Assembly: GCA_963762565.1 (NCBI GenBank)
Contig: CAVXLD010000007.1
Coordinates: 352,001 to 416,000, forward strand
Length of the DNA stretch: 64,000 nucleotides
Source of the DNA: an uncultured Verrucomicrobiae bacterium
Lineage (GTDB): Bacteria; Verrucomicrobiota; Verrucomicrobiia; Chthoniobacterales; JAFAMB01
Reading direction: 5' to 3'
In this document: positions 3,538-63,825 of the stretch, piece by piece
Layout: every line of letters begins with the position of its first letter
Numbering within the stretch: the stretch's first letter is position 1
Notes under the pieces: generated by a model
Told to the model about the DNA's origin: nothing
The model's database searches: none
The model's input: the letters and a program-made list of their open reading frames with translations, nothing else
Program-made: the position numbers and the translations under genes

Positions 3538-3957
3538 ATGAGACGCTTGGCTGCACCATTTCGTCCACCGACAACTCCAATCGGATTACCATTTGTTCAG
3601 CCGGAGACGGTGGCAGCGGCATTATTCTTACGACCCGCCATAGAAGAGCCTAAACCGGCGAGTTCGACGAACGGGCATTACCTACTGGAGATCGAACGTT
3701 TGAATCTCCATTTTGGCAATAAAATGGTTTTCGACAATTTTAATCTACAGGTCGCAGCCGGTGAATGTCTGGTGCTACTTGGGCCTAGCGGCATCGGAAA
3801 AAGCACCTTGCTACGGCTTTTGCTTGGAACGCTTCAACCCGAGAACGGCCGGATCTTGTTTGAAGACGTTGACATCGTCCATCTGGGCCGAGAGAAACTG
3901 AATCGACTGCGAACTAGGATCGGAATGGTTTTTCAATCGTCTGCCCTGATCAGTTAG
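3538..3957 (+). pseudogene. Truncated ABC ATPase (MlaF/Ttg2A-like)
   Basis: Walker A GPSGIGKS and Q-loop RIGMVFQSSALIS, then a stop; no signature or Walker B follows. Confidence 0.75.
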
Positions 3958-4155: not shown

Positions 4156-5025
4156 CTATAATTCCCCTTCATTCGGCTGGTGAAAGACTAAGACAGGGCA
4201 GGGCGCATACTTCACGATGCGGTGCGCCTGACAAAACAGGTAGCCAAGAAAACCGGAATGATAACTCGCGGTAACGATCAAGTCCGCCTTCAGCTCCCGT
4301 GCTGCCTGCGTGGTCTGCTCGGCGACATCGCCGATGCGGAATTTGGCTCCACATCGCGGAAAGTTGTGACGCATCTTATCAGCAAAATGGGTCAGCTTTT
4401 GCTTTCGCCAATTGCGTGCTCGCTCGTACGCCTCGAGGCCGTCTTCGGCCGTGAATATTGGAATTGCCTCTGCCGGAAACACATGCAGGAAGGTAACGTA
4501 CGCTCCAAACGGCTTAGCCAATGCCAACGCATAGAAAGCAGTCTGTTCGGAATGGGCGGATAGGTCCACCGGGACAATGATCCTTCGAATATAAACTTTG
4601 CTCTCCTTGATCGATTCCGATTCGGGCTTAGGCTCAGCAGAAGGTGATGGCGCCGAGCTGAACCCTAGCGCCGAGCTTACCCGTGCCGGACCCCGAAACA
4701 CCGGGTTGAAGATAGCTCCAGCGAGCGGGTCAAACGGTCGTACGAGTATAGGAACGCCCGAGACGTCTGAATCAAACGCTGATAATTCTAAAGGCGTGGA
4801 ACACCGGGCACAATAGCCGGGTGCATACGAAACGACGTCTGGGTGCGCCGGGCAGACGTATTTTACGCCTCTACTTGGATCGCTCGTTTTATAACCGGTC
4901 TTCGTCCCGATTTCATGCCGGCACATTTTTGATCGGAAAAATCGCATCGGACCTCGTTTCAAAAGATAAGTATGGCCGATCAAAGCGATCTGATACCCAA
5001 TTCTTGGCGAATCGTTTTCGCCCAT
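4156..5025 (-). CDS. Universal stress protein with an N-terminal heavy-metal-binding-like motif (start uncertain: 5070/5025/4947)
   Basis: USP signatures RRIIVPVDLS...ADLIV...APCPVLV; upstream YVCPAHP-x6-PGYCARC. Confidence 0.75.
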   Translation of the reverse strand: MGENDSPRIGYQIALIGHTYLLKRGPMRFFRSKMCRHEIGTKTGYKTSDPSRGVKYVCPAHPDVVSYAPGYCARCSTPLELSAFDSDVSGVPILVRPFDPLAGAIFNPVFRGPARVSSALGFSSAPSPSAEPKPESESIKESKVYIRRIIVPVDLSAHSEQTAFYALALAKPFGAYVTFLHVFPAEAIPIFTAEDGLEAYERARNWRKQKLTHFADKMRHNFPRCGAKFRIGDVAEQTTQAARELKADLIVTASYHSGFLGYLFCQAHRIVKYAPCPVLVFHQPNEGEL

Positions 5026-5083
5026 TGGCGTGTTCGTGAGGCGCTTCGTTCTCGTCCTCCCAATGAACACCGTGCCGTCCCAT

Positions 5084-5312
5084 GCCCAGGGCCTGGAGGG
5101 GAGCCGCTTTGCAGTGCCGCAGTTCTATCGGATGGCAGCAGGCGGCTCCCGGGAATAACCCAGCGTGTACTTTTACCTGGCGGCCTCTTGTTGCGAAGGG
5201 ATCGATCGGCGCGGCCCATAGAACTGCCCAACCATGGGTCGTTCCCGGGAGCCGCTTGCTGCCAAATCGCAGAGCTGCCCCCTTTCAAAGCGGCTCCCCT
5301 CTAGGCGCTGGG
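5084..5312. repeat. REP-like doublet: ~78-bp imperfect inverted repeat with internal GGAGCCGC...GCGGCTCC palindromes
   Basis: 5084-5161 is the approximate reverse complement of 5236-5312. Confidence 0.8.
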
Positions 5313-5458
5313 CCGCTTCTGCGCGCTGCGTCTTTGCAAAACTGTCGGACCCTTATGTTAACGCCCAGTGACGGCCGCCCCGAGCACCAACCAAGAGTTA
5401 GGACTAGCCAATAGACAGTAAGTCAAAGCAGATCAGGTCAGCGTAAGCTAAGTCACTA

Positions 5459-8283: not shown

Positions 8284-8784
8284 ATGAAAACCGTCACTGA
8301 AAAGTTAACCCAAAAAAAAGATTTGTCCGGTCGACCTGCCCCGATACCTCCGTTTAGCTTGAAACGCGTCCTGGCTCCGACGGATTTTTCGCCGAACTCG
8401 GAGAAAGCAGTGAGCTACGCAGTTCAACTAGCAAAACTGGTTGGAGCGAAGCTGACCTTGCTGCACGTGGTGCCTGAACCGTCCGCCCTCGACTATACTA
8501 TGGAAGGAATTCCAACCAAAGAAATTGAGGGATGGAAAAGGGAAGCCAAAAAGCTGCTGGCGGACGAGCTGTCGAGAGCAAAACTCGAATATGAAGATGT
8601 TGATTCAGTCCAGACCACTGCGCTTCACCCGTCTGACGAAATCATAGAGGTCGCAACCCGTCTCGCAGCCGATATAGTGGTGCTGTCGACGCATGGATAC
8701 AAGGGGTGGAAACACATGCTGCTAGGAAGTCACGCCGAAAAGATTTTTAAGGAAGCTCCTTGTCCAGTCCTGGTTGTCCGCTAA
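8284..8784 (+). CDS. Universal stress protein
   Basis: KRVLAPTDFS, STHG...LLGSHAEK, PCPVLVV. Confidence 0.93.
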   Translation: MKTVTEKLTQKKDLSGRPAPIPPFSLKRVLAPTDFSPNSEKAVSYAVQLAKLVGAKLTLLHVVPEPSALDYTMEGIPTKEIEGWKREAKKLLADELSRAKLEYEDVDSVQTTALHPSDEIIEVATRLAADIVVLSTHGYKGWKHMLLGSHAEKIFKEAPCPVLVVR

Positions 8785-9180
8785 TTACTGACCAGCACCG
8801 AGAAAACCGGTCTTTGATAAGCCTAGGCAAATGGCCGCAATAAATGCCAGGATCCATGGAGAAGCGTAAAATGGTAGCTAAATAAAAGGTCCAAGGCGTG
8901 GAGATTTCTTGTGGCTGTCACAATCAAATCGTCCGGTTCACCCCATTCGGAAACGGTGACAATTTAAGTAAGGTCGTTTTTTCAGCTAACAACCGGTCGC
9001 ACCCTTGTCGTGATCACCCATCGGGCCGGAAAAACCTGTTCGGTCTGGATGCGGTGCTGACTCTGTGCGACGGGCGGCTTGTTGCGTGAGACGCGAGACG
9101 CTGGAAAGATTTTAGCCTGGGTTGCTAGGCCCAGACTCCTTCGGCACAACATTCGTGCTTTCTGAACCGCGAAATTTGCG

Positions 9181-9663
9181 CTAGAAACCGGAATCCTCTC
9201 CTTTCGGTTTCAGACTGATGAGGTAAGCGACTAGATCGTTCAACTGGTCGTCGGTAAGCATATCCTTGAAACCCGGCATGTGCAGCGGCGGCGCCGGCCC
9301 ACTCGGATCCAGCTTCGGCTCATCAGGCACACCAATTTTAATCTTCTCGATCAGTTCGGGTTTGGTATAGCCGTCGGCCACCTTGTTAAGCGGGGGAATT
9401 TCCTGTCCCGATTGCGCATTAAAATTATGAACGCCGCCTTTGCCACCCGGACCGTGGCAGGTCTCGCAGCTGAATTCTTGGTAAATCTTTAATCCGCGTT
9501 GCAGCTCAGGACTCAGCGGCGCCGCCGAGGCCGAGGCTTCCGCTCCGGGCGGGACATTTTCTTTTTTCCGGCGTTGAGAATCGAGGTAGCCGGTTGCGAT
9601 AACAGACCCGACGAGAATCAAACCCATAATTCCAACCAGATATTTTTGCGCGTTGATGCTCAT
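9181..9663 (-). CDS. Membrane-anchored monoheme cytochrome c
   Basis: N-terminal TM helix, CETCH, distal MP motif (HMPGF). Confidence 0.88.
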   Translation of the reverse strand: MSINAQKYLVGIMGLILVGSVIATGYLDSQRRKKENVPPGAEASASAAPLSPELQRGLKIYQEFSCETCHGPGGKGGVHNFNAQSGQEIPPLNKVADGYTKPELIEKIKIGVPDEPKLDPSGPAPPLHMPGFKDMLTDDQLNDLVAYLISLKPKGEDSGF

Positions 9664-9677
9664 GCTTAAGTTCCAGT

Positions 9678-10712
9678 TCAACCGACAATCGCCTCCCAAA
9701 GCATGAACACGATCGTCATCAAAAAGCACGATGTCCCGACGATCACCCACAAATGCCTTCGAGGCGCGATTTTTTCCAGCGCGGCATCAATGAACGGCCA
9801 CAGAAACAGGCCGGCTACGAAGATCACACTTCCCCAGATTCCGACGGAGAGTGAGGTTAGCTTCAGCCAGCGATAGGTAGGAAAGAAGTACCACTCCGGA
9901 CGAATATGCCCAGGGGTATTGCCCGGTGTTGCCTGCGCACCGACGGTAGGCGGAAAGAACATAACGAAATTGACCAACGCGATCAGGATGACAAGACCGA
10001 CAATCATTTCCCGTAGCATATGGTCGGGAAAGAACGGATAGGTTTCTTGGCGTGGATCGCTTGGCAGTGGGGCCACTCCGTGCAAACGCACGAGGAGGAC
10101 GTGAGCGACAATCAGCAGCGTCATCATCGTGGGCAGCACACCGATATGGAAATCGTAAAACCTGCTGAGGGTGTTCGGATTTACTTCGGACCCGCCGCGC
10201 AGGAGATAAAGCAGTGGCTCGCCGATCACTGGCACGGCCGCAATCATGTTCGTGCCGATCGTGGTAGCCCAATAGGAGAGCTGGTCATAAACGAGCGAGT
10301 ACCCGGTAAATGCGAACGTCAGGGTGATCATAAAGAGCGCCACACCGAACATCCAGTTCAGCTCCCGCGGATTGCGGTAAGCGCGCGTGAAGAAGACGCG
10401 GATCATGTGCAGCAGCACGGTCACAATCATCAACTGAGAGGCGCCCTGATGGATACCGCGAATAAACCAACCCATGCGCACCTTGAAGGTGATGTTGCTG
10501 ACGCTAGCGTAAGCGTGGCTTGGAGATGGTACGTAGTAAAAAGTTAGTAAAATTCCCGTAACCGCGAGGATGCAGAAGAGTAGGGCCGGCGTTCCGCCCA
10601 GGCAAAAAACCCAGTTTTTCATATGAACGGGCAGCGGTTCGCGCAACGCCTTTCGGACGAGCTCCTGATCCACCGGCACTCGTTCCCCAATCCACCGGAG
10701 CGCACGCTTCAT
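9678..10712 (-). CDS. Cytochrome b of a Rieske/cyt b complex (b6-type, fused to subunit IV)
   Basis: Four heme His (RGIH...LLH; DFH...VAH), PEWY motif, NWVFCLGG; ATG at 10712 overlaps the Rieske stop (ATGA). Confidence 0.95.
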   Translation of the reverse strand: MKRALRWIGERVPVDQELVRKALREPLPVHMKNWVFCLGGTPALLFCILAVTGILLTFYYVPSPSHAYASVSNITFKVRMGWFIRGIHQGASQLMIVTVLLHMIRVFFTRAYRNPRELNWMFGVALFMITLTFAFTGYSLVYDQLSYWATTIGTNMIAAVPVIGEPLLYLLRGGSEVNPNTLSRFYDFHIGVLPTMMTLLIVAHVLLVRLHGVAPLPSDPRQETYPFFPDHMLREMIVGLVILIALVNFVMFFPPTVGAQATPGNTPGHIRPEWYFFPTYRWLKLTSLSVGIWGSVIFVAGLFLWPFIDAALEKIAPRRHLWVIVGTSCFLMTIVFMLWEAIVG

Positions 10713-11182
10713 GCCTGTTGCTCCTTGGGCGAATTCATGAGCACAAAAACCTGGCCGTCCCGCAATGTAACCTGAAGTTTTACCAATGGGCGCGGCGGCG
10801 GACCGGAAACGACATTTCCGTTCAAATCGTAAACCCCTTGATGGCACGGACAAATGAATCTCTTGTCCTCCGGATGCCATTGGACGGTGCAGCCCAGGTG
10901 AGTGCAAACAGCCGAAAAGGCATGAACTTCGTTCTCCGCTTTCTCTAAAATCACGGGACCCGCCGGCAACTGGATGAGCCGAACGCCGTCAGCTGGAATA
11001 TCCTCTGGTTTTCCTGCGGGCACCTCAACGAGTTTGACGGCCGGGATGACCGGATAAAGGTATTCCAGGAACCGATAAGCCAAGCTCCCCAAGCCCAGCA
11101 CCGTTCCTGCGCCGAGAACGATATTGGCTATGAAATCGCGGCGCGAGCCCAAAGCCACTTCGGATGGAGCCGGTTCTTCCAC
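10709..11182 (-). CDS. Rieske 2Fe-2S protein
   Basis: Tat motif SRRDFI, CTHLGC and CPCH boxes, GPPPRPL. Confidence 0.96.
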   Translation of the reverse strand: MEEPAPSEVALGSRRDFIANIVLGAGTVLGLGSLAYRFLEYLYPVIPAVKLVEVPAGKPEDIPADGVRLIQLPAGPVILEKAENEVHAFSAVCTHLGCTVQWHPEDKRFICPCHQGVYDLNGNVVSGPPPRPLVKLQVTLRDGQVFVLMNSPKEQQA

Positions 11183-11196
11183 GAAGCAGGCGTTCG

Positions 11197-11649
11197 TTAC
11201 TTGTACTTGTCGACGACCGCCTTGATCTTCGCTTCCGCAGCAGCCTTTTCCGCAGCCGAGATCGTCGCAAGTTTTGCATCAAGCATCGCCTTCTTGCGGA
11301 CGCTGGAGTCGTACACGAGGAAATCGTAAATCTTAGCGCCTGAGCCACCGTCAATTCCTGAGGCGGGCTTACTCATCATGCGGTGAATGTAGCGCGACCA
11401 CTCGTCTGGCAGTACAAAATCAGAGTTAATCGGGCGGCTCAACTTATGACACTGTGAGCACTTCTCGGTAAACACCGTGTAGTCTTGTTGGATGGCACCC
11501 GGATATTTCGAGACATTGATCGTCGCCGGGCCTTTGTCGAACTGTGCGATCCGAGCGTCAACTGCCTGAGCGAGCGCGAAGCCTGCCCCGATCACGGTGA
11601 CTGCAGACCCTAGCAGGAGGATGGTGGAGAGCTTGATTTTCATTGGCAT
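11197..11649 (-). CDS. Periplasmic monoheme cytochrome c (c551/P840-like family)
   Basis: Signal peptide ending ALA-Q, CSQCH, W...RMM distal Met. Confidence 0.85.
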   Translation of the reverse strand: MPMKIKLSTILLLGSAVTVIGAGFALAQAVDARIAQFDKGPATINVSKYPGAIQQDYTVFTEKCSQCHKLSRPINSDFVLPDEWSRYIHRMMSKPASGIDGGSGAKIYDFLVYDSSVRKKAMLDAKLATISAAEKAAAEAKIKAVVDKYK

Positions 11650-11670
11650 AATATTGGTATTTGCGGTCGT

Positions 11671-13152
11671 CTAAAATCCGTACGAAAGCTGGAAGACATA
11701 TTCGTTGGACGGAGCGACGATAGGGCCGCGGCTATGCACCCATTCGTAGTCGCCTTCCAATAGTAAGGTGTTAGTTAGATAGTAGACGTATCCAACCGTT
11801 TCACGTTGAGTTCTCGTCCCCAGACCGTCATCCACCCAATCAAAGCGGGCGACCAATTGAAGGTTGTTCAAGAACGGGAGATTCATGGTCTGATTTAAAG
11901 CTGCCAGCTTGAAAGCAGGCTGAATCCACCAACCTCGCGGAGCAAGCGTACCCATGTTGCTGGTCTGCCACCAGGTATTGATATACTCACCCTTAATTTC
12001 GAAGTAGGGACTGATGTGCACAGCGGCGTCGGCAACGATAGCTGACCAGTTTTTGTTCCCTTGGTTGTTCCAAGGACCCGTGTCACCCGAAATCCCGAGT
12101 TCCAAATCATAATTAGGTTTCAGCGGGAAGAACCACCCCAGCCGGCCACCGCCACCGACCGACGCGTGCTCATTCGCTGTCGTGCCATTGGATTGAATGC
12201 CGACATTACCAAAATCAAGATTCGGCAACACGTTGCCATTGCTGTCAATGGTTGTCGCTCTTCCGGTCCCGTCTACTGATCCCGGTCCGTTCGTTGCGTA
12301 CACGGAATAGGTTACCATCTGTCCGTTTTGCCCGATCGGAACGGAGCCCCGCAACTGGACGCCAATCCCAGTTTCCGGCAGGACGGCGCGTGGCAATGGA
12401 TCATCCGGTATCAAATTGAGCCAACCCGCATTTCGCTCAGTATAGGTACCCAAGGGCAGCAACATCTCGCCAGCGACAACCGTTACGTAATCATTAAGCA
12501 GATAGTCCAATTGGCCGAAACTGAGACTGATCGATGTCTGAGTGCCGATATTACCTGTTTGCCCGTTCGCCAGCGTTACCGCGCCGTTCTGCAACGTAAC
12601 GTCGAACCCGGCTTCGAAGAGGACGTTGTCTCCAGCCCGATACAAGAAAATCGGCGCGAAATCGGCCAGCGTAAAGGCGCTATGCTGCCCGGTGGTCTTG
12701 CCGAATTGAACCTCTGCGTCTCCGGCTAGAGTGAAGTTATGCGTCGCGAGGGACTCGGGAGAAATCGGAGCAACGGGCTGAATTTGGGTCACAGATACGG
12801 CCTTCTGTTCCGCCGCAGTCGCAGTATTTTGGGCTTCGCCTACCTGTTGCTGGAGTTTCTTTTGCATCTGGGCCGCCGCTTGTGCTTTGCGCTGGGCATC
12901 GGTAGCAGCTTTTTGCGTGTCCCCGACCTGCTGCTGTAATTGCTGGATTTTCTGCTGGTCCTGCTCGTGGATCTTCTGGTCTTCCTCGTGCGTCTGCTCC
13001 AGTTTCTGCATTTTTTCGCTGAGTTGCCGGACTTGTTCCTTCAAGGCATTGAAGTCGTCATCGCTGATCTCTGCCATCACCCGCGGCGGCGAGGACATAC
13101 CCATTACACAGCCAGCAACCAACAGTTCTAAGATTCTGGAACGAATTTTCAT
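11671..13152 (-). CDS. Outer-membrane beta-barrel (porin-like) protein with an N-terminal coiled coil
   Basis: Signal peptide, Q/E/K-rich coiled coil, alternating beta-strand pattern, C-terminal beta-signal YVFQLSYGF. Confidence 0.85.
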   Translation of the reverse strand: MKIRSRILELLVAGCVMGMSSPPRVMAEISDDDFNALKEQVRQLSEKMQKLEQTHEEDQKIHEQDQQKIQQLQQQVGDTQKAATDAQRKAQAAAQMQKKLQQQVGEAQNTATAAEQKAVSVTQIQPVAPISPESLATHNFTLAGDAEVQFGKTTGQHSAFTLADFAPIFLYRAGDNVLFEAGFDVTLQNGAVTLANGQTGNIGTQTSISLSFGQLDYLLNDYVTVVAGEMLLPLGTYTERNAGWLNLIPDDPLPRAVLPETGIGVQLRGSVPIGQNGQMVTYSVYATNGPGSVDGTGRATTIDSNGNVLPNLDFGNVGIQSNGTTANEHASVGGGGRLGWFFPLKPNYDLELGISGDTGPWNNQGNKNWSAIVADAAVHISPYFEIKGEYINTWWQTSNMGTLAPRGWWIQPAFKLAALNQTMNLPFLNNLQLVARFDWVDDGLGTRTQRETVGYVYYLTNTLLLEGDYEWVHSRGPIVAPSNEYVFQLSYGF

Positions 13153-13173
13153 TAGCGTTGGTTGGTTACTCTT

Positions 13174-13506
13174 CTAGTTTCCGGCTTCATCCTGGAGATA
13201 CTTCATGATCTCCCTGGCTTGCGCCGCGGGCAGGTTAGCCCGCACCCGCATGTGGATCATGATGGTTTTCCACTGGGCTGCCGTGAACTCCTTAGGGTAC
13301 CGTTCTTGGTGGCACCGGCTGCAGTTGATGGCGTACAGCGTGGCGCCGGAGAGGCCATTGGTCACCGCCGGCTTCTCCGGTGTAGTTTGCTGCGGTCCTG
13401 CTGAAACGAGAGGGCTGTTGACCACCCAAGTTGCTCCAGCAAAAATCGCGAGGCCGATAGCCAACAGCCGAGGCTTGAATGAACCAACGTGCTTGACGGT
13501 TTTCAT
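13174..13506 (-). CDS. Small periplasmic monoheme cytochrome c
   Basis: Hydrophobic leader, CSRCH, W...HM distal Met. Confidence 0.85.
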   Translation of the reverse strand: MKTVKHVGSFKPRLLAIGLAIFAGATWVVNSPLVSAGPQQTTPEKPAVTNGLSGATLYAINCSRCHQERYPKEFTAAQWKTIMIHMRVRANLPAAQAREIMKYLQDEAGN

Positions 13507-13844
13507 TGGGGCTAGAGTCGTTCTTCGCGTTCGGGGCAAAACGACTCCGCATCGGTGCCGGATGGTATCGCCCCTCGTGGGCTAACGGGGAAATTCCCTT
13601 TTATCCCTAAAGGAACCTACCCTGACAATTTTTCGGGTTTTGTACTCCACCCGAATTGCCTTTTTCTTGGCTTTTCTTGCTTAAACGAAACCCTCAAGGC
13701 GCGTGAGCCTGCGATGACCCGCATTCCCTGGACACTTTCCCACGTTTCGATAAAACTCGGCGCGGCAACAGATAGCCCTGGGCATGATCCGGAATGAAGA
13801 AACTCCGGCCCTCGAACGTTCACATCAGTTCGCTGGTCGCCGAT

Positions 13845-14729
13845 TTAGCTGATCTCAGGCAATCTAGACCGGTATTCTGTCGGAGAGAACCCGACCAGCT
13901 TACGAAAGATCCGGTTAAAGTGGGTAATCGTTTGGAAACCTGCCTCGTAAGCTATCTCGCTAACTCGCAGCCTTTTCTCCGACAACAAGACTTTCGCCTT
14001 CTCAATTCGGATACGGCTCAAGTAGTCAATGAAGGTTAGACCAGTTCCCTGTTTAAATACCCTGCAAAAATGAAACTCACTGACATTGAGGGCATGAGCA
14101 ATCTGTTCCAGCCTAATCGGTTCGGAGTGATGACTCGCCACATAATCTTTGGCGCGGGTAACCAGTGGCGAATCGACATTGGCGTGCTGGAGCGAAATCT
14201 GGTTGGCCACCAATGCCAGGTGTTCGGAGAAAATCTCCAAAAGTTGTACTGCTCCGTTATATAGACTGGATGAAACTACCCGTGAGCCCAGATACGCAGT
14301 TTTCAGGCGAGCCAAGTTCATGTTCGTACCTAGACTAGCTAAACGCGTAGCGATCTTCTTGAAGCGGCTTGGATTCGGAGCTCGCAGGAAGACTTGACCC
14401 GTCTGCAGAAACGCGATGACGTGGTCCATCAGCTTTACCGGCACGCTGGTAACCGTGAGTCCAGCGAAACATTTCGCCGCTCGTGTTTCCGTTGTCTTCG
14501 CGCCCAACGTCTGCTGTGTTTCTAAGCAGCTCGCGCAAGCCTGGTTACTCAGTGCAAGGATAGCGCAAAAAGGATTTTTATATTTGTTCCGAGGGAGGTG
14601 GATTTCCGACTCGTGTCCGACGGATGCGAGTCCCAAAGGTAACTTTGTTGTCTTTCCGAAGGCGACCTGATAATTTTGGTAAATTCGCGAACGGCTGAGC
14701 ACGTCCACGACGTCAGCACCGTTATTCAT
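13845..14729 (-). CDS. AraC-family regulator with a PocR-like sensor domain
   Basis: PFC...C..C...CFAGL-x4-VPV N-terminal pattern; C-terminal double HTH EIAYEAGFQTITHFNRIFRKLVGFSPTEYR. Confidence 0.88.
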   Translation of the reverse strand: MNNGADVVDVLSRSRIYQNYQVAFGKTTKLPLGLASVGHESEIHLPRNKYKNPFCAILALSNQACASCLETQQTLGAKTTETRAAKCFAGLTVTSVPVKLMDHVIAFLQTGQVFLRAPNPSRFKKIATRLASLGTNMNLARLKTAYLGSRVVSSSLYNGAVQLLEIFSEHLALVANQISLQHANVDSPLVTRAKDYVASHHSEPIRLEQIAHALNVSEFHFCRVFKQGTGLTFIDYLSRIRIEKAKVLLSEKRLRVSEIAYEAGFQTITHFNRIFRKLVGFSPTEYRSRLPEIS

Positions 14730-15112
14730 GATATGATCTATACCTCGGGCCACAGCGAAAGACTCATCACGGATTGGTCTGTTCTTATCGCTGGTTGCCT
14801 ATGCAGATTTTGGCCGGGCGACTTGGTTGGTCGTTGCCTCAATTCCCGCGATGGGTAGGTGGTTGAGTGAAGTCGTTGGTCGCGAAGTGCCAACCGCCAT
14901 CTGCGAAACAGCGAGCGAGTCGCCGCTACCAAAGGTCCGATTATGCTTGCCGATTGGACGAACGCTCGCTTAATGCGGATCCATTGTCCGCCAAGACGTC
15001 GAAATTCCGCGGATACGATCACAATCGCCTTGCGCGATGTTCCAGGAAGATCGGAAGCCTCGCCCTGCCAGTCTTGGGCGACCGCATCGAATCACTGGTC
15101 ACCAATCGCGAA

Positions 15113-17893
15113 TCATTTTTTCTCTAAGGCAGCTTGGGCTGCGGCCAAACGTGCAACCGGTATTCTGAAGGGACTGCAACTCACATAGTTTAGGCCGATT
15201 CGATGACAGAATTTTACGCTTTCCGGGTCGCCACCATGCTCACCACAGATCCCAAGTTCGATATCCGGACGTGTCTTGTGCGCCTGATCCCTGGCGAATT
15301 CCATTAGTTTCCCGACTCCCTGCTGATCGATCGTGGCGAATGGGTTATTCGCCAAGATCTCCAGTTCTTGATACTGAGGAAGGAACCCCCCGGAATCATC
15401 CCGACTCATACCCAACGTGGTCTGCGTGAGGTCGTTTGTTCCAAAGCTAAAAAACTCCGCCTCTTTGGCCAGCTCATCTGCAACCATGGCCCCGCGAGGT
15501 ATCTCCAGCATGATGCCAACCAGGTACTTGAATCTAACACTCTGTTCCTTGGCGACCTCTTTCGCTACGCGATGAACGATTTCGAATTGCAGACTCATCT
15601 CTCTGTAGAACCCAACTAACGGAATCATGATCTCGGGTTGCACTTTAATGCCGCTCTTGTGAACTTCGGCAACCGCTTCAAAAATTGCGCGAGCCTGCAT
15701 CTCCGTGACTTCGGGGTAGGCGATGCCAAGCCGGCAACCACGCAACCCTAGCATCGGATTGAACTCACGTAATTCCTCGACTCGATGCGCGATCCGCTCG
15801 AAAGAAACGCTCAATTTCTTAGCCAGATCTCTCTGCTGAGGTTCCGTATTCGGCAAAAACTCGTGCAGCGGCGGATCCAGGAATCGGATGGTCGTTGGCA
15901 GACCTTTCATTTCACGGAAGATTCCGACAAAATCAGCTCTCTGCAGCGGTAGTAGCTTGGCCAGCGCTGCCTTGCGTTCTTCTAGGGTTTCCGCCAAAAT
16001 CATCTCTCGCATTGAATCGATGCGATTGCCTTCGAAGAACATGTGTTCCGTGCGGCAAAGTCCAATGCCGGTGGCTCCGAAAGCGATCGCGACCGCGGCT
16101 TGGTTTGGCAAATCCGCATTGGCTCGCACTTCGAGTGTTCGCACTTGATCTGCCCAACGCATGAGCGAAGCGAATTCCTGGTAGACCTTGCTCTGTTTGG
16201 GATCGAGTTTCTTTTCCACCAGGACCTGTACGACCTCGGAAGCAGCGGTTTTCACTTCACCCGCGTAAACTTCGCCCGCCGTACCATCAATGGAAATATA
16301 GTCGCCTTGTTTGAGGGTTAGTTTTCCGGCGGTTAAGGTTTGAGCGGAATAATCGGTCTGCAGCGCTGACGCACCGCAAACACAGACCTTACCCATTTGC
16401 CGGGCCACGAGAGCCGCGTGCGAAGAGACCCCGCCTCGAGCCGTTAATATTCCCTGCGCGGCGATCATGCCCCGTAAGTCCTCCGGCGACGTTTCGATCC
16501 GGGCAAGAATCACTCTTTCGCCTTTTTGAGCCAATTCGACTGCTTCTTTGGCAGTGAACACCAGGCGGCCGGACGCAGCGCCTGGGCCGGCAGCTAGTCC
16601 GGTTGCGATCTTGGTTGTCTTACGAACGCTTTCCCGATCGAAGATAGGAGCCAAGAGATGACTCAATGAATCTGCCGGGATTCGCCGGATCGCTTCCTCT
16701 TTCGTAATTAGTTTCTCGGCCACCATATCCATGGCAATCCGGACCGCGGCAAAACCGGTTCTCTTTCCGTTTCTGGTCTGGAGGATGTAGAGCTTATTGT
16801 CTTCCACGGTGAATTCGAGATCCTGCATATCTCGGAAATGCTCTTCGAGTTTTGAGCGCACTTGCAATAGCTCTCGATGCGCCCTCGGCATCTCTTCAGC
16901 CAACTGAGCTACTGGGTGCGGTGTACGGACACCGGCCACCACATCTTCTCCCTGGGCGTTGATGAGATACTCACCGTAAAACACTTTTTCTCCCGTCGCC
17001 GGATCGCGGGTAAAAGCCACTCCGGTTGCGGAAGTGTCGCCACGGTTACCAAACACCATGGTCTGGACATTGACCGCCGTGCCCCATTCATGCGGGATGC
17101 CGTATTTGCGACGATAAACGATCGCTCGGTCATTGTTCCAAGAACCAAAGACGGCTCCAATGGCGCCCCATAACTGTTGGTCGGGATCTTGAGGGAAATT
17201 TTCCCCGGTCCGCTCCTTAATTAAGCGTTTGAACCGTTCTACCAGGATCTTCAAGTCGTCTGCGGACAGATCCGTGTCTTTCTCAGCGTTCGCGGATCGC
17301 TTGACCTCATCGATGATGGTTTCAAAGGGATCGTGATCTTCGCCGGCTCGTTTCTGGACACTCATCACGACATCGCCGTAGGTCTGCAAGAATCTGCGAT
17401 ACGAGTCCCAAGCAAACCGAGGATTATGGGTCTTTTCCGCCACGACTTCCACGACCTCGTCATTCATTCCGAGGTTCAAGATGGTGTCCATCATTCCGGG
17501 CATCGAGTCACGTGCTCCAGAACGGACGGAAACCAGCAGCGGATTGGCGCGATCTCCGAGCTTCTTACCTACGGATTTCTCGACTTTTGCCAACGCCTTT
17601 GCGACCTGAGCGGCAAGCTCAGGGGGATACTGTTTTTTGTTAGCGTAAAAGTAAGTGCATACTTCGGTGGTAATAGTGAATCCCGGAGGTACCGGCAATC
17701 CGATCCGCGTCATTTCGTGGAGGCCGGCGCCCTTGCCGCCTAACAGAGGTTTCATTGATCCTTTTCCATCGGCCTTACCATCGCCGAAAGAATAAACGTA
17801 GTGGCTTTCTTTTGGCGTGACGGGAGTGGTTCCCGCAGTCCGCGCGCGAGCGGGCGATTTCTTAGCGATCTTTTTTTTGAGTAGTTTGGACAT
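15113..17893 (-). CDS. ppdK: Pyruvate, phosphate dikinase
   Basis: [25 protein letters not shown] phospho-His, [18 protein letters not shown]. Confidence 0.98.
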
Positions 17894-18085
17894 AAGACGG
17901 GAGTTCTAAGGGAGATAAAGAAAAAGTTTCCAATCCAGGCTGTACTAACATGAACTAATTGCCTTGCGCCGACATTCCATCGATTGGCAATTGCTCGTCC
18001 TCCCTTGTCCCCCCCTGGGGCGAACTGCTAGCGTTGGTTAGTTTTCCTTGTCGTCAGATGTTTGCTGAGAGAGCATCTTCCAACA

Positions 18086-18645
18086 ATGTGGGTGAGCAAA
18101 AGCATTCATCGATTGGTACGATTTCGGCGGCGGACGCTCCTATTCCTAGCCGCGATGGGGCCGGGGATTATTACGATGATCGCGGACAACGATGCCGGTG
18201 GCATTTCCACTTATGCTCAAACTGGCGTGAGGACTGGGTTCAACTTGCTGTGGGCGTTCATTATCCTGGTGCCGATGGCGTACTACGTGCAGGAGATGAC
18301 GGTTCGTTTAGGTGCGGTCACTAAACGCGGTCACGCCGAGGCCATCTTTGACGGATTTGGAAAGTTCTGGGGCTGGTCTGCAGTGGGGAAAGGGTTTTAC
18401 AGTCCGAATTTCCATTTTAGCCAGACTTTCACCCCCGATCGCGTTGCTGACTTTGATCATGGCGAACATCGGTACCACCATCACTCCTTGGCAGATCTTT
18501 TTTCATCAGTCAGCGGTAGTAGACAAAGGTATGGACGTCGCCGACATCACGGCGGGCAAGATCGATACTTTTGTCGGCTCGCTGATGACCTGTGTAGTAG
18601 CAGTGTTTATCATTATTGCTACGGCCGGGGTCTTTCATTTTAATC
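18086..18645 (+). pseudogene. NRAMP/MntH-like divalent metal transporter remnant
   Basis: GPGIITMIADNDAGG...QEMTVRLG in one frame and ANIGTTITPWQIFFHQS in another; middle and C-terminal helices missing. Confidence 0.85.
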
Positions 18646-19023
18646 TCGATCAGGATCCGAAATGGCGGTTCGAGGAGTTCAAGGAGGGGAGTCAGGAGCT
18701 AGAATCCAGGAGCTAGGAGGTCTTGGGCGAGGGGGGCTCCTGGAGACGAAGAGCTAGGAGACGCTGGGTACATCCGTTCCAGGGGACGCCTGACCCCTGC
18801 AGTAATGGTCTATTTGGTAATCACTCTTCCTTGTTTCCGCTTTCTTACCTCGCGCCTTTGCGGCTTTGCGTGAGATGTTTCTCTGGTCCTAGCTCCTTCC
18901 TCCTTGCACTCCTCCTAGACCTGCCAGGACGTGGTGGCCCGCCAAGAGAAGAGATGAATTGATCAAGCCAGGTGGAGCGGTCGGTCGCTTGTTGGGACAG
19001 CGTTCCGTAACGGAAGGAAGAGC

Positions 19024-19572
19024 ATGATCAGCACAAGCGAAAAAGAGCCCAGCAAAGTTAATAGTCGACCTGCACGTCTGGCCAGATCGCGAGTCCCGTT
19101 TGGAGTGAGACATATCCTCGTGGCGATGGAATCGGATGAAAAGGTTCCGAGAGCGGTCGAGTACGCGAAACGATTTGCACGGCTTTGCCATTGTCAGCTG
19201 ACGCTGATGTCCGTCTACCGGGTCAAATACAGTTTCGCACCGTTGCACGGTTTGGAAGCAGTGAGGTCCATGGAGCAGGAGATGGACCAAGCATTTCAAG
19301 ACCTTGAGAGTCTCACGACGCAAGTCCGGCAAGGCTTCCAAGAGTGCGACGCTTGCTTTCGAGCAGGTATCCCAGACGACGAGATTTCTTGGACGGTTAA
19401 TGCCCTGGGCATCGACTTGATCGTGATCGGGAAACGCTGTGGGCAACCGACGCAGGATAAGTCTGACGGGATTAAGGCGGAGACGATAAGGCAGCGGACC
19501 GGCTGCCCGGTCATAGTGGTTCAGGAAGACAAACGGTCGTCAGGTCCCTCCGGGACGGGCTGCTTTTCCTAA
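19024..19572 (+). CDS. Universal stress protein
   Basis: RHILVA, IDLIVIG, GCPVIVV. Confidence 0.8.
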   Translation: MISTSEKEPSKVNSRPARLARSRVPFGVRHILVAMESDEKVPRAVEYAKRFARLCHCQLTLMSVYRVKYSFAPLHGLEAVRSMEQEMDQAFQDLESLTTQVRQGFQECDACFRAGIPDDEISWTVNALGIDLIVIGKRCGQPTQDKSDGIKAETIRQRTGCPVIVVQEDKRSSGPSGTGCFS

Positions 19573-20712: not shown

Positions 20713-23700
20713 TCAGCGGTTAGGAATAGCTGTTGGAGATAGGTCATTAGTTTCTTTCGATCCGTTATTGGCGAGTTGCTGAAAGTGTTGCCAACGCTTC
20801 TGGATATTCTCCTGGGCTTGTAGGAATAAACGCCCGGCTTCTTCTGGTTTGCTCTTACTGAGCATTCTGAACCTGTTTTCCAACTTGAGATACTCGGATA
20901 CAGGCAATTTAGGAGCCGCCGAATCGATATGCAGCGGGTTTTCTCCTTTTGTGACCAGTGAGGGATTATAACGATAGAGCAACCACTGCCCTGTCTGGAC
21001 CGCAGCTTTTTGATTCTGCATCGCCGTGGTCATATTGATCCCGTGGGCGATGCAATGGCTGTAAGCGATGATCAGAGCGGGACCGTCGTAGGCCTCGGCT
21101 TCTAGAAATGACTTTAAGGTGTGTTCGTCTTTCGCGCCCATGGCAACACAGGCGACATAAATATTGCCGTAAGTCATGGAGATCAGTCCAAGGTCCTTCT
21201 TAGCAATGCGTTTGCCGCCCGCAGCGTATTTTGCGACTGCTCCCAGCGGAGTCGACTTGGAACATTGGCCGCCGGTGTTTGAATAAACCTCGGTATCCAG
21301 CAGCAAGACTTTCACGTTGCAGCCACTGGCGAGAACGTGATCGAGACCTCCGTAGCCGATGTCGTATCCCCAGCCGTCCCCACCAATTACCCAAACACTC
21401 TTGCGTACCAGGGTGTCAACCACAGGCAACAATTGCCGGGCAACCTCTGAGTCAGCCTTCTCCAACTCCCGCTTGAGCTGGGTGACTCGCGCGCGTTGTG
21501 CATACACGCCGGCGGCGTCCTTTTGATCTGCTGTGAGAATTTCCTCGACCAATTCAGCCCTGACCAGACCATCGAGTTGCCGCAGCAACTCGGCTGCGAA
21601 TTGAGATTGTTTGTCCAGAGACACTCGAAATCCCATGCCGAACTCGGCAGCGTCTTCGAATAGCGAGTTGGACCAGGCTGGTCCTAACCCATCGGCACCT
21701 GCTGCATAGGGAGTCGTTGGTAAGTTCCCGCCATAGATGGATGAACAACCGGTCGCATTCGCGATCAGCAACCGATCTCCGAACAGCTGGGTCAATAATT
21801 TAATATAGGGCGTCTCGCCACATCCGGCGCAAGCCCCGGAAAACTCGAAAAGCGGCTCGGCGACCTGCATGCCCCGGACATTCTCGAAGGAAAGCTGGGG
21901 GCGCTCCTGGTTAGGCAGAGCAGAGAAGAATTCCCAATTTTGACGTTCGGCGTCACGCAACTCGGAATGAGAGCGCATATTGATTGCCTTCAGCCGTGCT
22001 TCGCTCTTGTTGCGCGCCGGACAAACATCGACGCAAATGCCGCAACCAGTGCAATCCTCAGTGGAGACTTGCAACGTGTAGTTGAGCCCCTTCCATTCAG
22101 GAAGTCTGGCCTGGTTGGATTTGAACGAATCCGGCGCCGAAGTCAGAAATGACGGCTCGTAAACCTTACTTCTAATCACCGCGTGCGGACAAACTAAGAC
22201 GCACTTTCCGCACTGGATGCAGATGTCCGGATCCCAAACCGGCACTTCGAGGGCCAGATTCCGTTTCTCCCAGCGGGCAGTTCCCGTAGGATAGGTTCCA
22301 TCTACAGGCAATGCGCTGACGGGGACTTCGTCTCCGTGCCCGGCGATCAGTTTGCCGAGCACATCTCGAATGAATGGTGGCGCTTTGGTTACTGCGGCTG
22401 GTTCGAGCTCGGGTCGGGGAGTGACTTCTTCAGGAATATGAACTTCGAACAAGTACGTGAGAGTGTGGTCGACCGCGTTCAGGTTCGTCTGTACGATGTC
22501 GGCGCCTTTTTTTCCGTAAGTCTTACGAATCGAGTCTTTGATTGCGGACATCGCTTCTTGGCTGGGAAGCACGCCGGAGATGGCGAAGAAACAGGTCTGC
22601 ATGATCGTGTTGATCCTGCCGCCCATCCCGGTCTCATGAGCCACCTTATGTGCGTCGATCACAAAGAAGTGCGGCCGTTTTTCGATGAGTTGTTTCTGCA
22701 CCGATTCCGGCAGACGGCTCCAGACCTCGTCGGGGCCGAATGGCGTATTCAAAAGGAACGTCCCGTGTGGCGCGACCTTGTCTACGACATCGTAGCGTTC
22801 AAGAAAACCAGGCTGGTGACAGCCGACGAAATTTGCTTCGCTGACTAAATAAGTTGAACGAATTGGGCGGGGGCCAAACCGCAGATGCGAGATCGTCATC
22901 GCTCCGGATTTCTTGGAGTCGTAGACGAAATAACCTTGAGCGTAGTTGGGGGTATTTTCTCCGATGATCTTGATGGACTCCTTATTCGCGCCGACGGTGC
23001 CGTCAGATCCGAGCCCGTAAAAGACCGCTCGCACGACATCACTGGATTCTACCGAAAAGGAAGCATCATAGACCAGACTCGTTCCGGTAACGTCGTCATT
23101 GATCCCAATGGTAAAATGATTTTTCGGGATCGGTTCCTTCAAATTGTCCAACGCCGCCTTGACCATGGCCGGCGTGAATTCTTTCGAAGATAAACCGTAC
23201 CTTCCGCCAACGATCCGCAACTCGGTTCTGTTAGCTTCTTGCAGAGCATTAACGCAATCCAAGTAAAGCGGTTCACCAGCGCTACCCGGTTCCTTAGTTC
23301 GATCCAAAACTGCAATCGCTTTGACGGTGGATGGCAGGGCTCGAACGAAGCCGGGAGAGTCGAAAGGCCGGTATAGGCGAACTTTCAAAACCCCGACCTT
23401 CTCCCCCTGAGAATTCAAGAAATCCGCAGTCTCTTCTGCTGCTTCTCCGCCGGAGCCCATTATAACGATCACTCGCTCGGCATCGGCTGCCCCCTGATAG
23501 TCGAAGAGATGGTACTGGCGTCCGGTAAGAGCGGCGAAACGATCCATCGCGTCCTGTACGATATGCGGACACGCCTGATAAAATTGGTTAGCAGCTTCTC
23601 TCGCCTGGAAATAAACGTCCGGGTTCTGAGCAGTACCGCGGATAACTGGATGATCGGGAGACAAGGCGCGAGCTCGATGCGCGCGAACCCATTCTTCCTT

Positions 23701-31346: not shown

Positions 31347-31898
31347 CTACAATATGACTTCCGGCGGCACACCCAGCTGATTGCGGGCCGCGAACCAATC
31401 GGACTCTGCATCCCCAGGGTAACTCCCGCCCCCTTGGACCCGTCGCGCCCAAATCGAGAATGCAAGGTTCTGCACCTTAGCGCGCAATTCCTCCATTTTT
31501 GATTGAGCCACCTCCGATTTCAGTTCTTCGAGAGCGGTGTAATCCTCAAGTGTGCTCAGGTCGCCCAACGGCTTCTCTTCCACGACGGCCTGAATCGCGC
31601 GTCGCACAATCTTGCCAGACCGGGTTCGCGGCAGCTGTTTAACAATGTGGATTGCAACCGGACGCGCAATCGCCCCGAGACGCCCGAGAATAATTTGAAT
31701 GATCTCATTCTTCAGTTCCGGTTCCTCTTTTAGCGAGCCTTGACGAACAACAGCGAAGCAATGAATTACTTGCCCTTTTATCTCGTCGTCGAGGAAAGGA
31801 GTTTTCCAATGGATTGCTTCCGCCTGGCCTTGCCAAAAGGAAGTCGGATCGGTTACTGACCAGTTATACAATTCACTATAAGAGCTCGAGTCGTTCAT
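31347..31898 (-). pseudogene. prpE: Internally deleted propionate/acetate-CoA ligase (PrpE-like), in frame, with a DUF2934-like tail
   Basis: N-terminal FW...A..IHWKTPF joined directly to C-domain DEIKGQ...LPRTRSGKIVRR...GDLSTLED; tail AFSIW...GDAESDWFAARNQL. Confidence 0.75.
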
Positions 31899-31990
31899 GG
31901 GAAAGCGCACCCTTCACGTTTCGTTTATTTGCTTCCGCCTTTGGCAGTGGTAGGAACTGCGATTCCCTCACCGTGAGGCGGATGCTTTTC

Positions 31991-56675: not shown

Positions 56676-57128
56676 TTAGTCCAGGGCGTATTTCTCCTCA
56701 AAATCCAATCCGTGCCGTTTCAGAATAGCCAAATACTCTTCCCGAAAGGTCCGAGTGCGATGATGCTCCGGTTGGTTTTGGATGTATGCCATCGTCTCCG
56801 AAAGCTGGGAGGTGCTGACGCTGAAAGCGCCGTAGCCCTCTTGCCAACTAAAGTTACGGAATTGCCGAAAATTCTGGTGGATCCAGGCCGAGGATCCACC
56901 CTTGATCAATTGAATGGCTTTAGCAACGGACAGTGTCGTCGGCATCGATAGGAGCAGATGAACGTGGTCTGCGACCCCACCGACGCATCTTGGTTTGATG
57001 CCGTTTTGTTTGGCGATGCCGCCTAGGAAAGGCCATAGACGTTCTCTAAGTTCAGGGTTCAGAACCGGGACGCGCTCTTTGGTGGTGAAAACACAATGGA
57101 TGTTCAGAGAGAAAAACGTATTCGGCAT
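56676..57128 (-). CDS. tnpA: IS200/IS605-family HUH (Y1) transposase, REP-associated
   Basis: HCVFTTKER, DHVHLL (HUH), WQEGYGAFSVS, catalytic YIQNQPEHH. Confidence 0.93.
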   Translation of the reverse strand: MPNTFFSLNIHCVFTTKERVPVLNPELRERLWPFLGGIAKQNGIKPRCVGGVADHVHLLLSMPTTLSVAKAIQLIKGGSSAWIHQNFRQFRNFSWQEGYGAFSVSTSQLSETMAYIQNQPEHHRTRTFREEYLAILKRHGLDFEEKYALD

Positions 57129-63181: not shown

Positions 63182-63679
63182 CTATTTTACCACCACGGTC
63201 GGACAAGGCGCGTGCTCAAGACTTTTCTCTGCGTAACTACCAAGCAGGAAATGCTGCCAGCCAGTTAACCCGTGCGTCGAAAGCACAAGAAGATCCGCGG
63301 GCAAGTCAGAGGCAACCTTAACGATTTCGTCTCGCGGCGAAATGGCCGTTCGCTGAATACTGTCCACTTTTAGGTACTGTCGCCTGGCTGCCTCCACCTG
63401 TTGCGAAAGTCGCTTGGCGGCTTCGCGTTGCCATCCAGCGATTTCTGCCGATGGTATTCCTTCCATTGGATAGTTTAGGGCCGATGGCTCAGGCACAACG
63501 TGCAGAATGGTAAGATGCGCCCCTAGGCCCTTAGCCAACTGAAGTGCGCAATTAACTGCTTGTAAGGCGTTGGGAGAAAAGTCGGTTGCGACTAGAATTC
63601 GTTTAAATTTGAATTGCCTATTATCGGACCGACGAGAGTGGTCTGGTACATGATTCAGGACATTGATCGCTTCGCTCAT
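63182..63679 (-). CDS. Universal stress protein (paralogue of 8284..8784)
   Basis: KRILVATDFS, HVVPEPSAL.Y.MEGIP, STHG...LLGSYAEK. Confidence 0.92.
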   Translation of the reverse strand: MSEAINVLNHVPDHSRRSDNRQFKFKRILVATDFSPNALQAVNCALQLAKGLGAHLTILHVVPEPSALNYPMEGIPSAEIAGWQREAAKRLSQQVEAARRQYLKVDSIQRTAISPRDEIVKVASDLPADLLVLSTHGLTGWQHFLLGSYAEKSLEHAPCPTVVVK

Positions 63680-63825
63680 ACTATTATGACCCTTTCTCGC
63701 AGAGATTGCTCTATAAAACGTCGACCTGCTCTCCACGGATTGGCGGGGACTACCCACCCTTTGGCTGCTGAGATTCGCCCGCATCGCTACAAGAGGCGTT
63801 GCGGACTCGAGCCGCCTGACAACGC

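Follow-up and report, generated by a model that had tools for sequence, protein, structure and literature searches.

Few routes by which electrons cross the outer membrane of Gram-negative bacteria are known, namely the Mtr-type multiheme conduits, the Pcc systems of Geobacter, and the fused Cyc2. The question raised here is what a β-barrel porin does in a verrucomicrobial gene cluster that otherwise encodes three monoheme c-type cytochromes and a Rieske/cytochrome b complex. The cluster occupies positions 9181 to 13506 of a stretch of 64,000 nucleotides (nt) from an uncultured Verrucomicrobiae bacterium (assembly GCA_963762565.1, contig CAVXLD010000007.1), referred to below as the window. An original prediction, made from the letters of the DNA alone, had proposed a monoheme-only path linking the quinone pool to the cell surface or to a redox substrate delivered by the porin. 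The analysis that followed points to a more narrowly defined unit. The first cytochrome of the cluster (cytc1) and the porin would, on balance, probably constitute a two-component, or split, analogue of Cyc2, placed within a redox module that is wired to the Rieske/cytochrome b complex.

According to the list of open reading frames (ORFs) and their translations, six genes are packed on the minus strand in the order cytc1, porin, cytc2, Rieske, cyt b, and cytc3. Their co-orientation and close spacing had been described correctly at the outset, with successive gaps of 21, 21, 14, −4, and 14 nt, the −4 nt gap being an ATGA overlap of the cyt b start over the Rieske stop. The gene for cytc1 (13174 to 13506) encodes 110 amino acids (aa) from its ATG, and an alternative TTG start at 13539 would add another 11 aa. 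Its product is a secreted monoheme cytochrome c of the SorB/DHC/TorC-C-terminal type, with one CSRCH motif and a mature part of about 74 aa. The porin gene (11671 to 13152) encodes 493 aa with a signal peptide and a C-terminus ending in SYGF. Signal peptides, as well as the membrane anchor of cytc3, were judged by eye from the translations. A scan of positions 8700 to 15200 for sigma-70 promoters and terminators gave counts of 4 versus 3.9 and 7 versus 8.1 in shuffled sequence; as both counts are at shuffle level, the scan neither supports nor contradicts a single transcript.

A scan with a porin alignment, in which each species was represented by one genome, returned 166 relatives, and the best 80 of these (46–79% porin identity) were taken as loci; these relatives assign the organism to Verrucomicrobiota. 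They were found with the closer of two alignments (A2), which reaches down to about 46% identity; the more diverse alignment (A1) was too variable. Neighboring genes were called by tblastn of the window proteins against the 80 loci. The gene for cytc1 adjoins that of the porin in 78/80 loci, directly upstream (≤260 nt) in 71 and directly downstream in 7, and the pair is retained down to 46% porin identity. In the two loci without a visible cytc1 (L013 and L024), the contig ends inside the porin. Two assemblies carry two copies each (L028 with L029, and L027 with L052), and in both assemblies both copies are accompanied by cytc1. On the other side of the porin, a CxxCH-bearing frame follows within 1.3 kb in 74/76 loci. 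This position is taken by cytc2 in 50 of the 77 loci with enough flank; where the following cytochrome is not cytc2, it is often diheme, and two CxxCH motifs were present in 16/57 downstream ORFs under a stricter ORF scan.

The Rieske and cytochrome b genes are less tightly associated. They lie on the strand of the porin in 37/80 loci, or in 33/62 loci with at least 6 kb of downstream sequence. The check on conservation of the porin beside the Rieske/b genes thus came out in favor of the original prediction, with a correction: the association is frequent, it is not obligatory, and it involves two different types of complex. The proposed unit of porin plus Rieske/b likewise gives way to another one. 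Since cytc1 adjoins the porin in 78/80 loci and a CxxCH frame follows in 74/76, with Rieske/b genes in only 37/80, the conserved unit is cytc1, the porin, and the following cytochrome, and complex III genes, which come in two kinds, often neighbor this module without being obligatory.

Four arrangements follow the porin among the 62 loci with at least 6 kb downstream. The contiguous order of the window is found in three (L003, L007, and L008), and it also recurs in L013 from the porin onward. The commonest arrangement, type B (30/62), comprises cytc2, a GltD-like flavin adenine dinucleotide (FAD)/iron-sulfur (FeS) protein of 640 residues, another Rieske/b pair with 31–50% identity to that of the window, a multiheme cytochrome, a cytc3 homolog, and CcsBA. 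In 10/62 loci, cytc2 is present without the Rieske/b pair, and the next gene typically encodes an anchored diheme cytochrome with a cytc3 domain, as read in L012. The remaining 19/62 loci have no cytc2. Because the six-gene order recurs and the cytc1-porin pair is found in 78/80 loci, the arrangement in the window is not due to chance. The window arrangement was also considered as the ancestral one and rejected, as the close relatives L001 and L004–L006 (69–76% porin identity) carry the GltD-type Rieske/b genes after cytc2. Of the window-type cytochrome b, L004 retains only a remnant (residues 216–308, 80% identity) at 21079 to 21483, about 10 kb downstream of the porin. In the same locus, the CcsBA-like gene after the type-B operon (17174 to 18856) is seemingly interrupted by an opposite-strand ORF that looks transposase-like by eye. 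Other genes were seen beside the module in loci without Rieske/b: a TonB-like protein and two pyrroloquinoline quinone (PQQ)-type β-propellers in L046 (12236 to 16115), a VIT1 iron/manganese transporter in L030 (7899 to 8597), and a NorB-like oxidase with a cytochrome c domain in L078 (16880 to 19114).

The beta-barrel assignment was confirmed by structure prediction with AlphaFold2 (AF2) and comparison with Foldseek, which place the protein among 16-strand porins of the OprP/OmpU class. The AF2 model was built on 27 sequences and has a mean predicted local distance difference test (pLDDT) score of 74.5, with values of 85–94 across most of the barrel. It consists of a helix at residues 31–109, which forms a coiled-coil-like periplasmic stalk of 80 residues, followed by 16 long strands, and a long loop at residues 232–260 occupies the position of loop L3. 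Foldseek matched the model in the PDB to OmpU (4.2e-12), OprO (4rjw, 1.4e-11; 4rjx, 4.3e-11), and OprP (2.3e-11), with further matches to OmpC, Omp32, and the coiled-coil porins OmpM1 and DcaP. At the level of sequence, the porin matched no Pfam or NCBIfam family, PF07396 gave no match even at E ≤ 1, and a PDB sequence search yielded coiled-coil noise only. However, P0158, a distant relative that matches the window porin at E 4e-44, scores 27 bits against Porin_O_P, for which the cut-off is 20.9, and in a language-model atlas the neighboring clusters of the porin carry PF07396 in 60–68% of their members. Since the predicted fold, the Foldseek matches, the atlas, and P0158 agree, the porin is, as modeled, a divergent member of the 16-strand OprO/OprP/OmpU diffusion-porin class with a periplasmic stalk and not an Mtr-type sheath. 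Its family comprises 725 representative clusters at E ≤ 1e-3. It has in common with OprO/OprP, OmpU/OmpC, OmpM1, and DcaP the 16 strands, the long L3, and a C-terminal aromatic residue, and some of these porins also possess an N-terminal periplasmic helix. To our knowledge, none of them holds a cytochrome.

The partner protein, cytc1, has the consensus LTGAELYAINCNRCHPERYPTEFTAAQWKTIMLHMRVRANLP over an alignment of 79 sequences, in all of which G54, C62, R64, C65, H66, R69, E73, W79, H85, M86, and R89 are invariant. It passes the cut-off of Pfam DHC (9.2e-5; 23.9 bits against 22.2) and falls under the cut-offs of the NCBIfam models for the TorC C-terminal domain (1.2e-7) and SorB (5.1e-5). Its AF2 model exceeds a pLDDT of 90 over residues 50–110 and is closest by Foldseek to SorB (2blf_B) and Rhodobacter DHC (2fwt; root-mean-square deviation 2.2 Å over 59 columns). 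SorB, the TorC C-terminal domain, and Rhodobacter DHC share with cytc1 a small class I-like heme domain. They differ from it in that they either bind to molybdoenzymes or carry two hemes as periplasmic proteins, and cytc1 stays under the equivalog cut-offs. Cytochromes of the SorB/TorC type normally work with periplasmic enzymes.

Contact between porin and cytochrome had been named as a check by complex prediction, and for cytc1 such a contact is strongly predicted. With the mature porin (residues 28–493, 77-row alignment), cytc1 (residues 37–110, 79 rows), and one heme as input, the interaction prediction score from aligned errors (ipSAE) was 0.92 in each of three runs, and three controls scored 0.00, 0.00, and 0.01. 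The models contain 96–108 contacts with at least 87% contact agreement between runs, and the pLDDT of the partner is 83. The ipSAE mark was passed by 116/157 solved complexes and 2/215 mismatched pairs, a calibration that serves as a rough guide for the cytc1-porin pair. No complex of this kind is known to have been solved, so the score is unlikely to reflect a structure that the predictor had already seen. Nearly the entire folded part of cytc1 (residues 50–96) contacts the porin in the model, touching the periplasmic ends of strands 1–10 and 14/15, the periplasmic turns, and loop residues 239–245. On the barrel, the contacts fall on alternate, lumen-facing residues (170/172, 178/180, 216/218, 224/226, 268/270/272, 279/281/283, 343/345, 349/351, and 377/379). 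We take this to mean that cytc1 would cork the modeled barrel at its periplasmic mouth and make contact with the L3-like loop at its tip. The predicted interface lies on a conserved face of the lumen: conservation averages 0.84 over its 46 residues versus 0.68 over the other 318 barrel residues (Mann-Whitney p = 3e-5), and positions conserved at 90% or more number 26/46 at the interface versus 95/318 elsewhere in the barrel (Fisher p = 4e-4). Binding of cytc1 to the porin is thus supported, though not demonstrated, by the model.

Fusions within the porin superfamily also support a physical association of cytochromes with these porins. P0248 and P0201 were read in sequence as a class I cytochrome c followed by a linker or coiled coil and the barrel. 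Eleven more clusters (P0274–P0277, P0279–P0281, P0283, P0328, P0331, and P0346) were assigned to the class I cytochrome-porin form from length and precomputed Pfam annotation only. The best NCBIfam match of the cytochrome domains of P0248 and P0201 is "cytochrome 579", far under the cut-off, and several relatives of P0248 carry precomputed PF07396. In P0218, the porin is fused to a heme-less cytc1-like domain that has lost its CxxCH, and in P0203 an AMIN (peptidoglycan-associated) domain takes the place of the cytochrome at the porin N-terminus. As the superfamily has several such N-terminal forms, the stalk seems to serve periplasmic modules in general as an adaptor. P0271 and P0272 have a class I cytochrome fused in front of the cytc1 domain. 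The fusions also suggest a short relay of hemes that would hang from the plugged domain. No fusion of cytc1 itself to the porin was present among the four matches in a search for longer proteins with cytc1; in that search, P0273 was rejected as a cytc1-porin fusion for being a frameshifted read-through, and P0270 was rejected as a longer cytc1 protein for being an over-long ORF call.

The geometry of the predicted complex matches the one proposed for Cyc2, and a split two-gene analogue is proposed on this basis. Cyc2 is described as a 16-strand barrel superimposable on OprO (4RJX), in which the heme lies on the periplasmic face and sites for Fe(II) lie within the barrel (PMC13741234, a 2026 review), and its cytochrome domain has been described as a plug (PMC5566968). 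Like Cyc2, Cyt572, and Cyc2PV-1, the Fe(II) oxidases of Acidithiobacillus, Leptospirillum, and Mariprofundus, the window pair combines one c-type heme with an OprO-like 16-strand barrel. Placement of the heme on the periplasmic side, a feature of Cyc2 (PMC13741234), is predicted for the window pair. The cytochrome-before-barrel order of Cyc2 is also that of 71/78 loci, and cytochromes, a bc complex, or an oxidase are encoded nearby in both. Unlike Cyc2, which is one polypeptide, the window encodes two ORFs 21 nt apart, each with its own signal peptide. The 80-residue N-terminal helix of the porin and the SorB/DHC type of the cytochrome are further differences, and the likeness is one of geometry.

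Under the proposed mechanism, cytc1 would enter the 16-strand barrel from the periplasm and come to rest in its periplasmic mouth, up against the L3-like loop. A small redox-active solute entering the pore from outside could then exchange electrons with the heme of cytc1, the most likely candidates being dissolved Fe(II)/Fe(III) complexes, with small quinone-like humic compounds as another possibility. Electrons would pass between this heme and the anchored cytc3 by way of the soluble cytc2, and cytc3 would connect to the b6-type Rieske/cytochrome b complex, the quinone pool, and terminal oxidases encoded elsewhere. The relay from cytc1 through cytc2 to cytc3 is an inference, as are the substrate and the direction in which electrons move.

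Of the two destinations in the original prediction, a soluble substrate delivered through the pore fits this mechanism, and wiring to solid minerals does not. Because the barrel has 16 strands and a single heme would sit at its periplasmic mouth, the module cannot wire the cell to solid minerals. In this respect it differs from MtrAB, MtoAB, and PioAB, the Omb-Oma-Omc systems of Geobacter, and the verrucomicrobial porin-octaheme cluster, which resemble it in having adjacent genes for a barrel and an inserting periplasmic cytochrome, the insertion being predicted in the present case. Mtr-type and Pcc systems are described as having barrels of at least 20 strands, multiheme wires of 8–10 hemes that span the membrane, and solid substrates (PMC5615132; PMC5566968). 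In the window, by contrast, the barrel has 16 strands, and cytc1, cytc2, and cytc3 carry one CxxCH each. The published porin-cytochrome cluster of Verrucomicrobiota, described with at least 20 strands and eight hemes, is therefore another system (He et al., 2017, PMC5615132).

The remaining members of the operon supply the putative periplasmic and inner-membrane partners. The gene for cytc2 (11197 to 11649) encodes a secreted monoheme cytochrome c of 150 aa, with one CSQCH motif and a C-terminal amphipathic helix. It matched no Pfam family, and a single-sequence search of the PDB found nothing. A profile of 50 sequences, however, matches the heme domain of Chlorobaculum cytochrome c-z (3a9f, 5.5e-4; 7uea_C, 6.2e-4). 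Cytochrome c-z accepts electrons directly from its Rieske/b complex without a cytochrome c1. A periplasmic shuttle is the probable role of cytc2, which is distantly similar to cytc1 (hhalign probability 68%, E 5e-5). The gene for cytc3 (9181 to 9663) encodes a class I monoheme cytochrome of 160 aa with an N-terminal hydrophobic anchor, one CETCH motif, and a C-terminus ending in SLKPKGEDSGF (Pfam Cytochrom_C, 2.7e-11); a cytc3-type domain also closes the type-B and type-C operons of related loci.

Between these two cytochromes lie the genes for the Rieske 2Fe-2S subunit (10709 to 11182) and cytochrome b (9678 to 10712). The former has a twin-arginine SRRDF signal/anchor and the motifs CTHLGC and CPCH (Pfam Rieske, 5.4e-13), and it matches the NCBIfam model of b6f PetC at 4.7e-21, under the cut-off. 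The latter (344 aa) is a b6 part fused to a subunit-IV-like part (Pfam Cytochrome_B, 1.3e-48; Cytochrom_B_C, 3.4e-8). Its translation contains CxGG (as FCLGG), PEWY, and His pairs 13 and 14 residues apart, and the CxGG motif has been tied to heme cn (PMC5600118). Among NCBIfam models, cytochrome b scores best against ExtP (1.2e-66; 224.5 bits, cut-off 290) and also matches cytochrome b6 (2.5e-58). With the CxH and CxxH ligands of the Rieske protein, two His pairs, PEWY, CxGG, and a subunit-IV part all present, the pair is, as far as its motifs indicate, a b6-type complex with a subunit-IV part.

The match to ExtP leads to the closest precedent. The original prediction had named no characterised example, but a porin encoded within a Rieske/b cluster is partly characterised in Geobacter sulfurreducens, where extHIJKLMNOPQS is described as including an OprP-like porin (ExtI), the small ExtJ, a Rieske protein (ExtO), the b6-type ExtP, the subunit-IV-like ExtQ, and the c-type ExtS (PMC5877670). 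The likeness consists in a porin encoded with Rieske and cytochrome b and in the best score of the window cytochrome b being against the ExtP model. The ext cluster differs in that it also encodes a selenoprotein, a rhodanese, and four multiheme cytochromes, and the published account of it does not describe ExtJ as a cytochrome (PMC5877670). Neither a rhodanese ExtH nor the multiheme ExtKL, ExtM, and ExtN was found encoded between positions 8284 and 14753 in translations and family scans. Besides the ExtP score of 224.5 bits against 290, the window proteins reach only 15.3 of 100 bits for ExtS, and the porin has no NCBIfam match. A second comparison concerns the type-B operons, which resemble the Rieske/b operons of anammox planctomycetes with an NAD(P) (nicotinamide adenine dinucleotide, or its phosphate)-binding FeS subunit; the complex of the window is without such a subunit. 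It has been proposed that complexes with this subunit produce NAD(P)H (PMC12954380; PMC5600118). In the review of bc-complex operons, the terms "porin" and "outer membrane" each occur zero times (PMC5600118), and no published description of the cytc1-porin module was found in the literature searched (main texts). The module, supported here by computation only, looks like a two-component monoheme cytochrome-porin that has not been described before.

In which direction electrons would flow can be answered only tentatively. Inward flow, in which an external donor is oxidized as in Cyc2 systems, is a possibility that we favor slightly, because the only characterized proteins with such a geometry are Fe(II) oxidases, because one locus (L055), with genes for Rieske/b, cytochromes, porin, cytc1, COX2, and COX1, resembles the rus operon with its cytochrome-porin, cytochromes, and oxidase, and because Rieske/b operons linked to NAD(P) could allow an uphill transfer of electrons. 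Outward flow from quinol to an external soluble acceptor is somewhat less expected; it is suggested by the position of the module, which usually heads operons for quinol-oxidizing complexes, and by the stress-protein genes that flank it in the window.

Several points weigh against a split Cyc2 analogue. We infer heme attachment, outer-membrane location, binding, and activity alike. A single heme on the periplasmic side cannot span the membrane, so a solute must pass or approach the L3 constriction, and no metal site was identified in the model of the porin and cytc1. The porin was modeled as a monomer, its structural relatives being trimers, the heme was unscored, and the mouth position was deduced from the contact list together with the secondary-structure (DSSP) string of the separate AF2 model. 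The calibration of ipSAE is only approximate here because custom alignments were used and heme was present. The Foldseek E-values of cytc1 are weak (0.2 to 1), and the families nearest to it (SorB, DHC, and the C-terminal domain of TorC) comprise subunits of enzymes or proteins of the periplasm and no outer-membrane cytochromes. All 80 loci stem from metagenome-assembled genomes that are nearly all verrucomicrobial, about nine bear other, unverified labels and are possibly binning errors, and Rieske/b genes are absent from the available flanks in 43/80. The window otherwise resembles that of an ordinary heterotroph, with genes for pyruvate:ferredoxin oxidoreductase (PFOR), the glyoxylate shunt, polyhydroxybutyrate (PHB), and methylmalonyl-CoA metabolism, and we know of no iron or humic phenotype in these lineages, although no systematic search for one was made.

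Among the alternatives, the one that survives best, although we regard it as unlikely, is a substrate-specific diffusion porin served by ordinary periplasmic carriers, similar to ExtI, in which an oxyanion, metal chelate, or similar solute would be redox-converted by free cytc1 and cytc2 that receive their electrons from the Rieske/b complex or return them to it. In that case, the plug seen in the prediction would reflect an artefact of modeling or a docking that is only transient. This alternative draws on the OprO/OprP/OmpU class of the barrel, the relatives of which reach the Porin_O_P cut-off (P0158), on the best score of the window cytochrome b being ExtP, and on the usual service of SorB/TorC-type cytochromes to periplasmic enzymes. 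The OprP-like ExtI, encoded with Rieske/cytochrome b in Geobacter, is moreover described as implicated in selenite and tellurite reduction (PMC5877670). However, a periplasmic catalytic enzyme (molybdoenzyme, multicopper oxidase or reductase) that such a scheme would employ is not conserved in the module among the loci read. The adjacency of one particular 74-residue cytochrome in 78/80 loci goes beyond plain co-regulation, and the scores of 0.92 for the pair and at most 0.01 for the controls, with the interface on the conserved lumen face, are left unexplained.

Less probable still is a plugged or redox-gated porin in which cytc1 acts as a regulatory cork, or an envelope tether like OmpM or DcaP, or both, without net electron flow to the outside. 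The long helix at residues 31–109 and the structural likeness to OmpM1 and DcaP suit a tether, as does P0203 with its AMIN domain replacing the cytochrome, and the heme-less P0218 would have retained a cytc1-like domain without redox chemistry. Against it, CxxCH, H85, and M86 are invariant in 79/79 cytc1 sequences, and the second cytochrome after the porin (74/76) and the respiratory complexes nearby (37/80) point to electron transfer; we also know of no redox-gated porin. That there is no functional link, and that a housekeeping porin gene happens to lie among respiratory genes and has been kept there by synteny within a single phylum, is very improbable: the loci do come from one phylum or from doubtful bins, so that shared ancestry inflates the counts, and the promoter and terminator scan is uninformative, yet the pair survives inverted order (7 loci), at least four types of downstream partners, and duplication within a genome, fusions exist, and the interface prediction is specific.

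The surroundings of the operon include a possible regulator. An AraC-family protein with a PocR sensory domain (13845 to 14753, minus strand; Pfam HTH_18, 4.9e-24; PocR, 4.9e-16) is encoded in the same orientation as cytc1 and about 340 nt upstream of it, and a homolog lies within 2.5 kb upstream in 25/68 loci with enough flank; it is a possible regulator of the six-gene operon. Four universal stress protein genes occur in the 64 kb (4156 to 5070, minus strand; 8284 to 8784, plus; 19024 to 19572, plus; and 63182 to 63784, minus), one directly downstream of the cytochrome operon and one with an N-terminal heavy-metal-binding-like motif. An inverted repeat with 79-nt arms (5084 to 5162 and 5235 to 5313; 78% complementary, 72 nt apart) lies between pdxH and the stress protein gene with the heavy-metal-binding-like domain, and spurious ORFs overlap it. 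The gene for an Nramp (MntH-like Mn/Fe) transporter (18062 to 18716, plus) appears to be broken into two overlapping ORFs in different frames, which cover profile positions 1–62 and 158–230 of 357; located beside the ppdK gene, they are probably a pseudogene remnant. Likely gene remnants are also an ABC ATPase fragment of 139 aa (3538 to 3957, plus) and an ORF of 187 aa (31347 to 31910, minus) that joins an acetyl-CoA synthetase N-terminus to the C-terminal domain. An IS200-like Y1 transposase gene (56676 to 57128, minus) stands between methylmalonyl-CoA/enoyl-CoA genes and a CHAD-domain gene. Two paralogs of about 910 aa (24920 to 27682 and 58343 to 61072, both minus) combine ADP-forming acyl-CoA synthetase domains with GNAT, as in Pat-like protein acetyltransferases.

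A split analogue of Cyc2 would bear on how iron and humic cycling is surveyed. Marker-gene surveys of these processes rest on the Mtr, Pcc, and Cyc2 families, and a two-gene monoheme version that draws on another cytochrome family would escape them, even though soils, peat, and humic lakes harbor the lineages concerned in abundance. With 74 residues in the cytochrome and 466 in the porin, the parts are small; particular conserved residues are singled out by the predicted interface, and the operon also offers candidate periplasmic and inner-membrane partners. If the split analogue is real, then together with the fused class I cytochrome-OprP-like porins it might mean, more speculatively, that devices with a cytochrome in a small porin arose several times, independently of Cyc2. 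Should the link to NAD(P)-binding Rieske/b complexes hold, it would also bear on the role of such complexes outside the anammox bacteria. On an equally speculative view, soil, peat, and humic-lake Verrucomicrobiota may possess a phylum-wide and so far unrecognized two-component monoheme cytochrome-porin that would make them redox-active toward dissolved iron or humic quinones and that, where it heads NAD(P)-linked Rieske/b operons, would support the uphill formation of NAD(P)H with electrons taken from a donor outside the cell. Such NAD(P)H would be a lithoheterotrophic supplement in organisms that are regarded as plain polysaccharide degraders.

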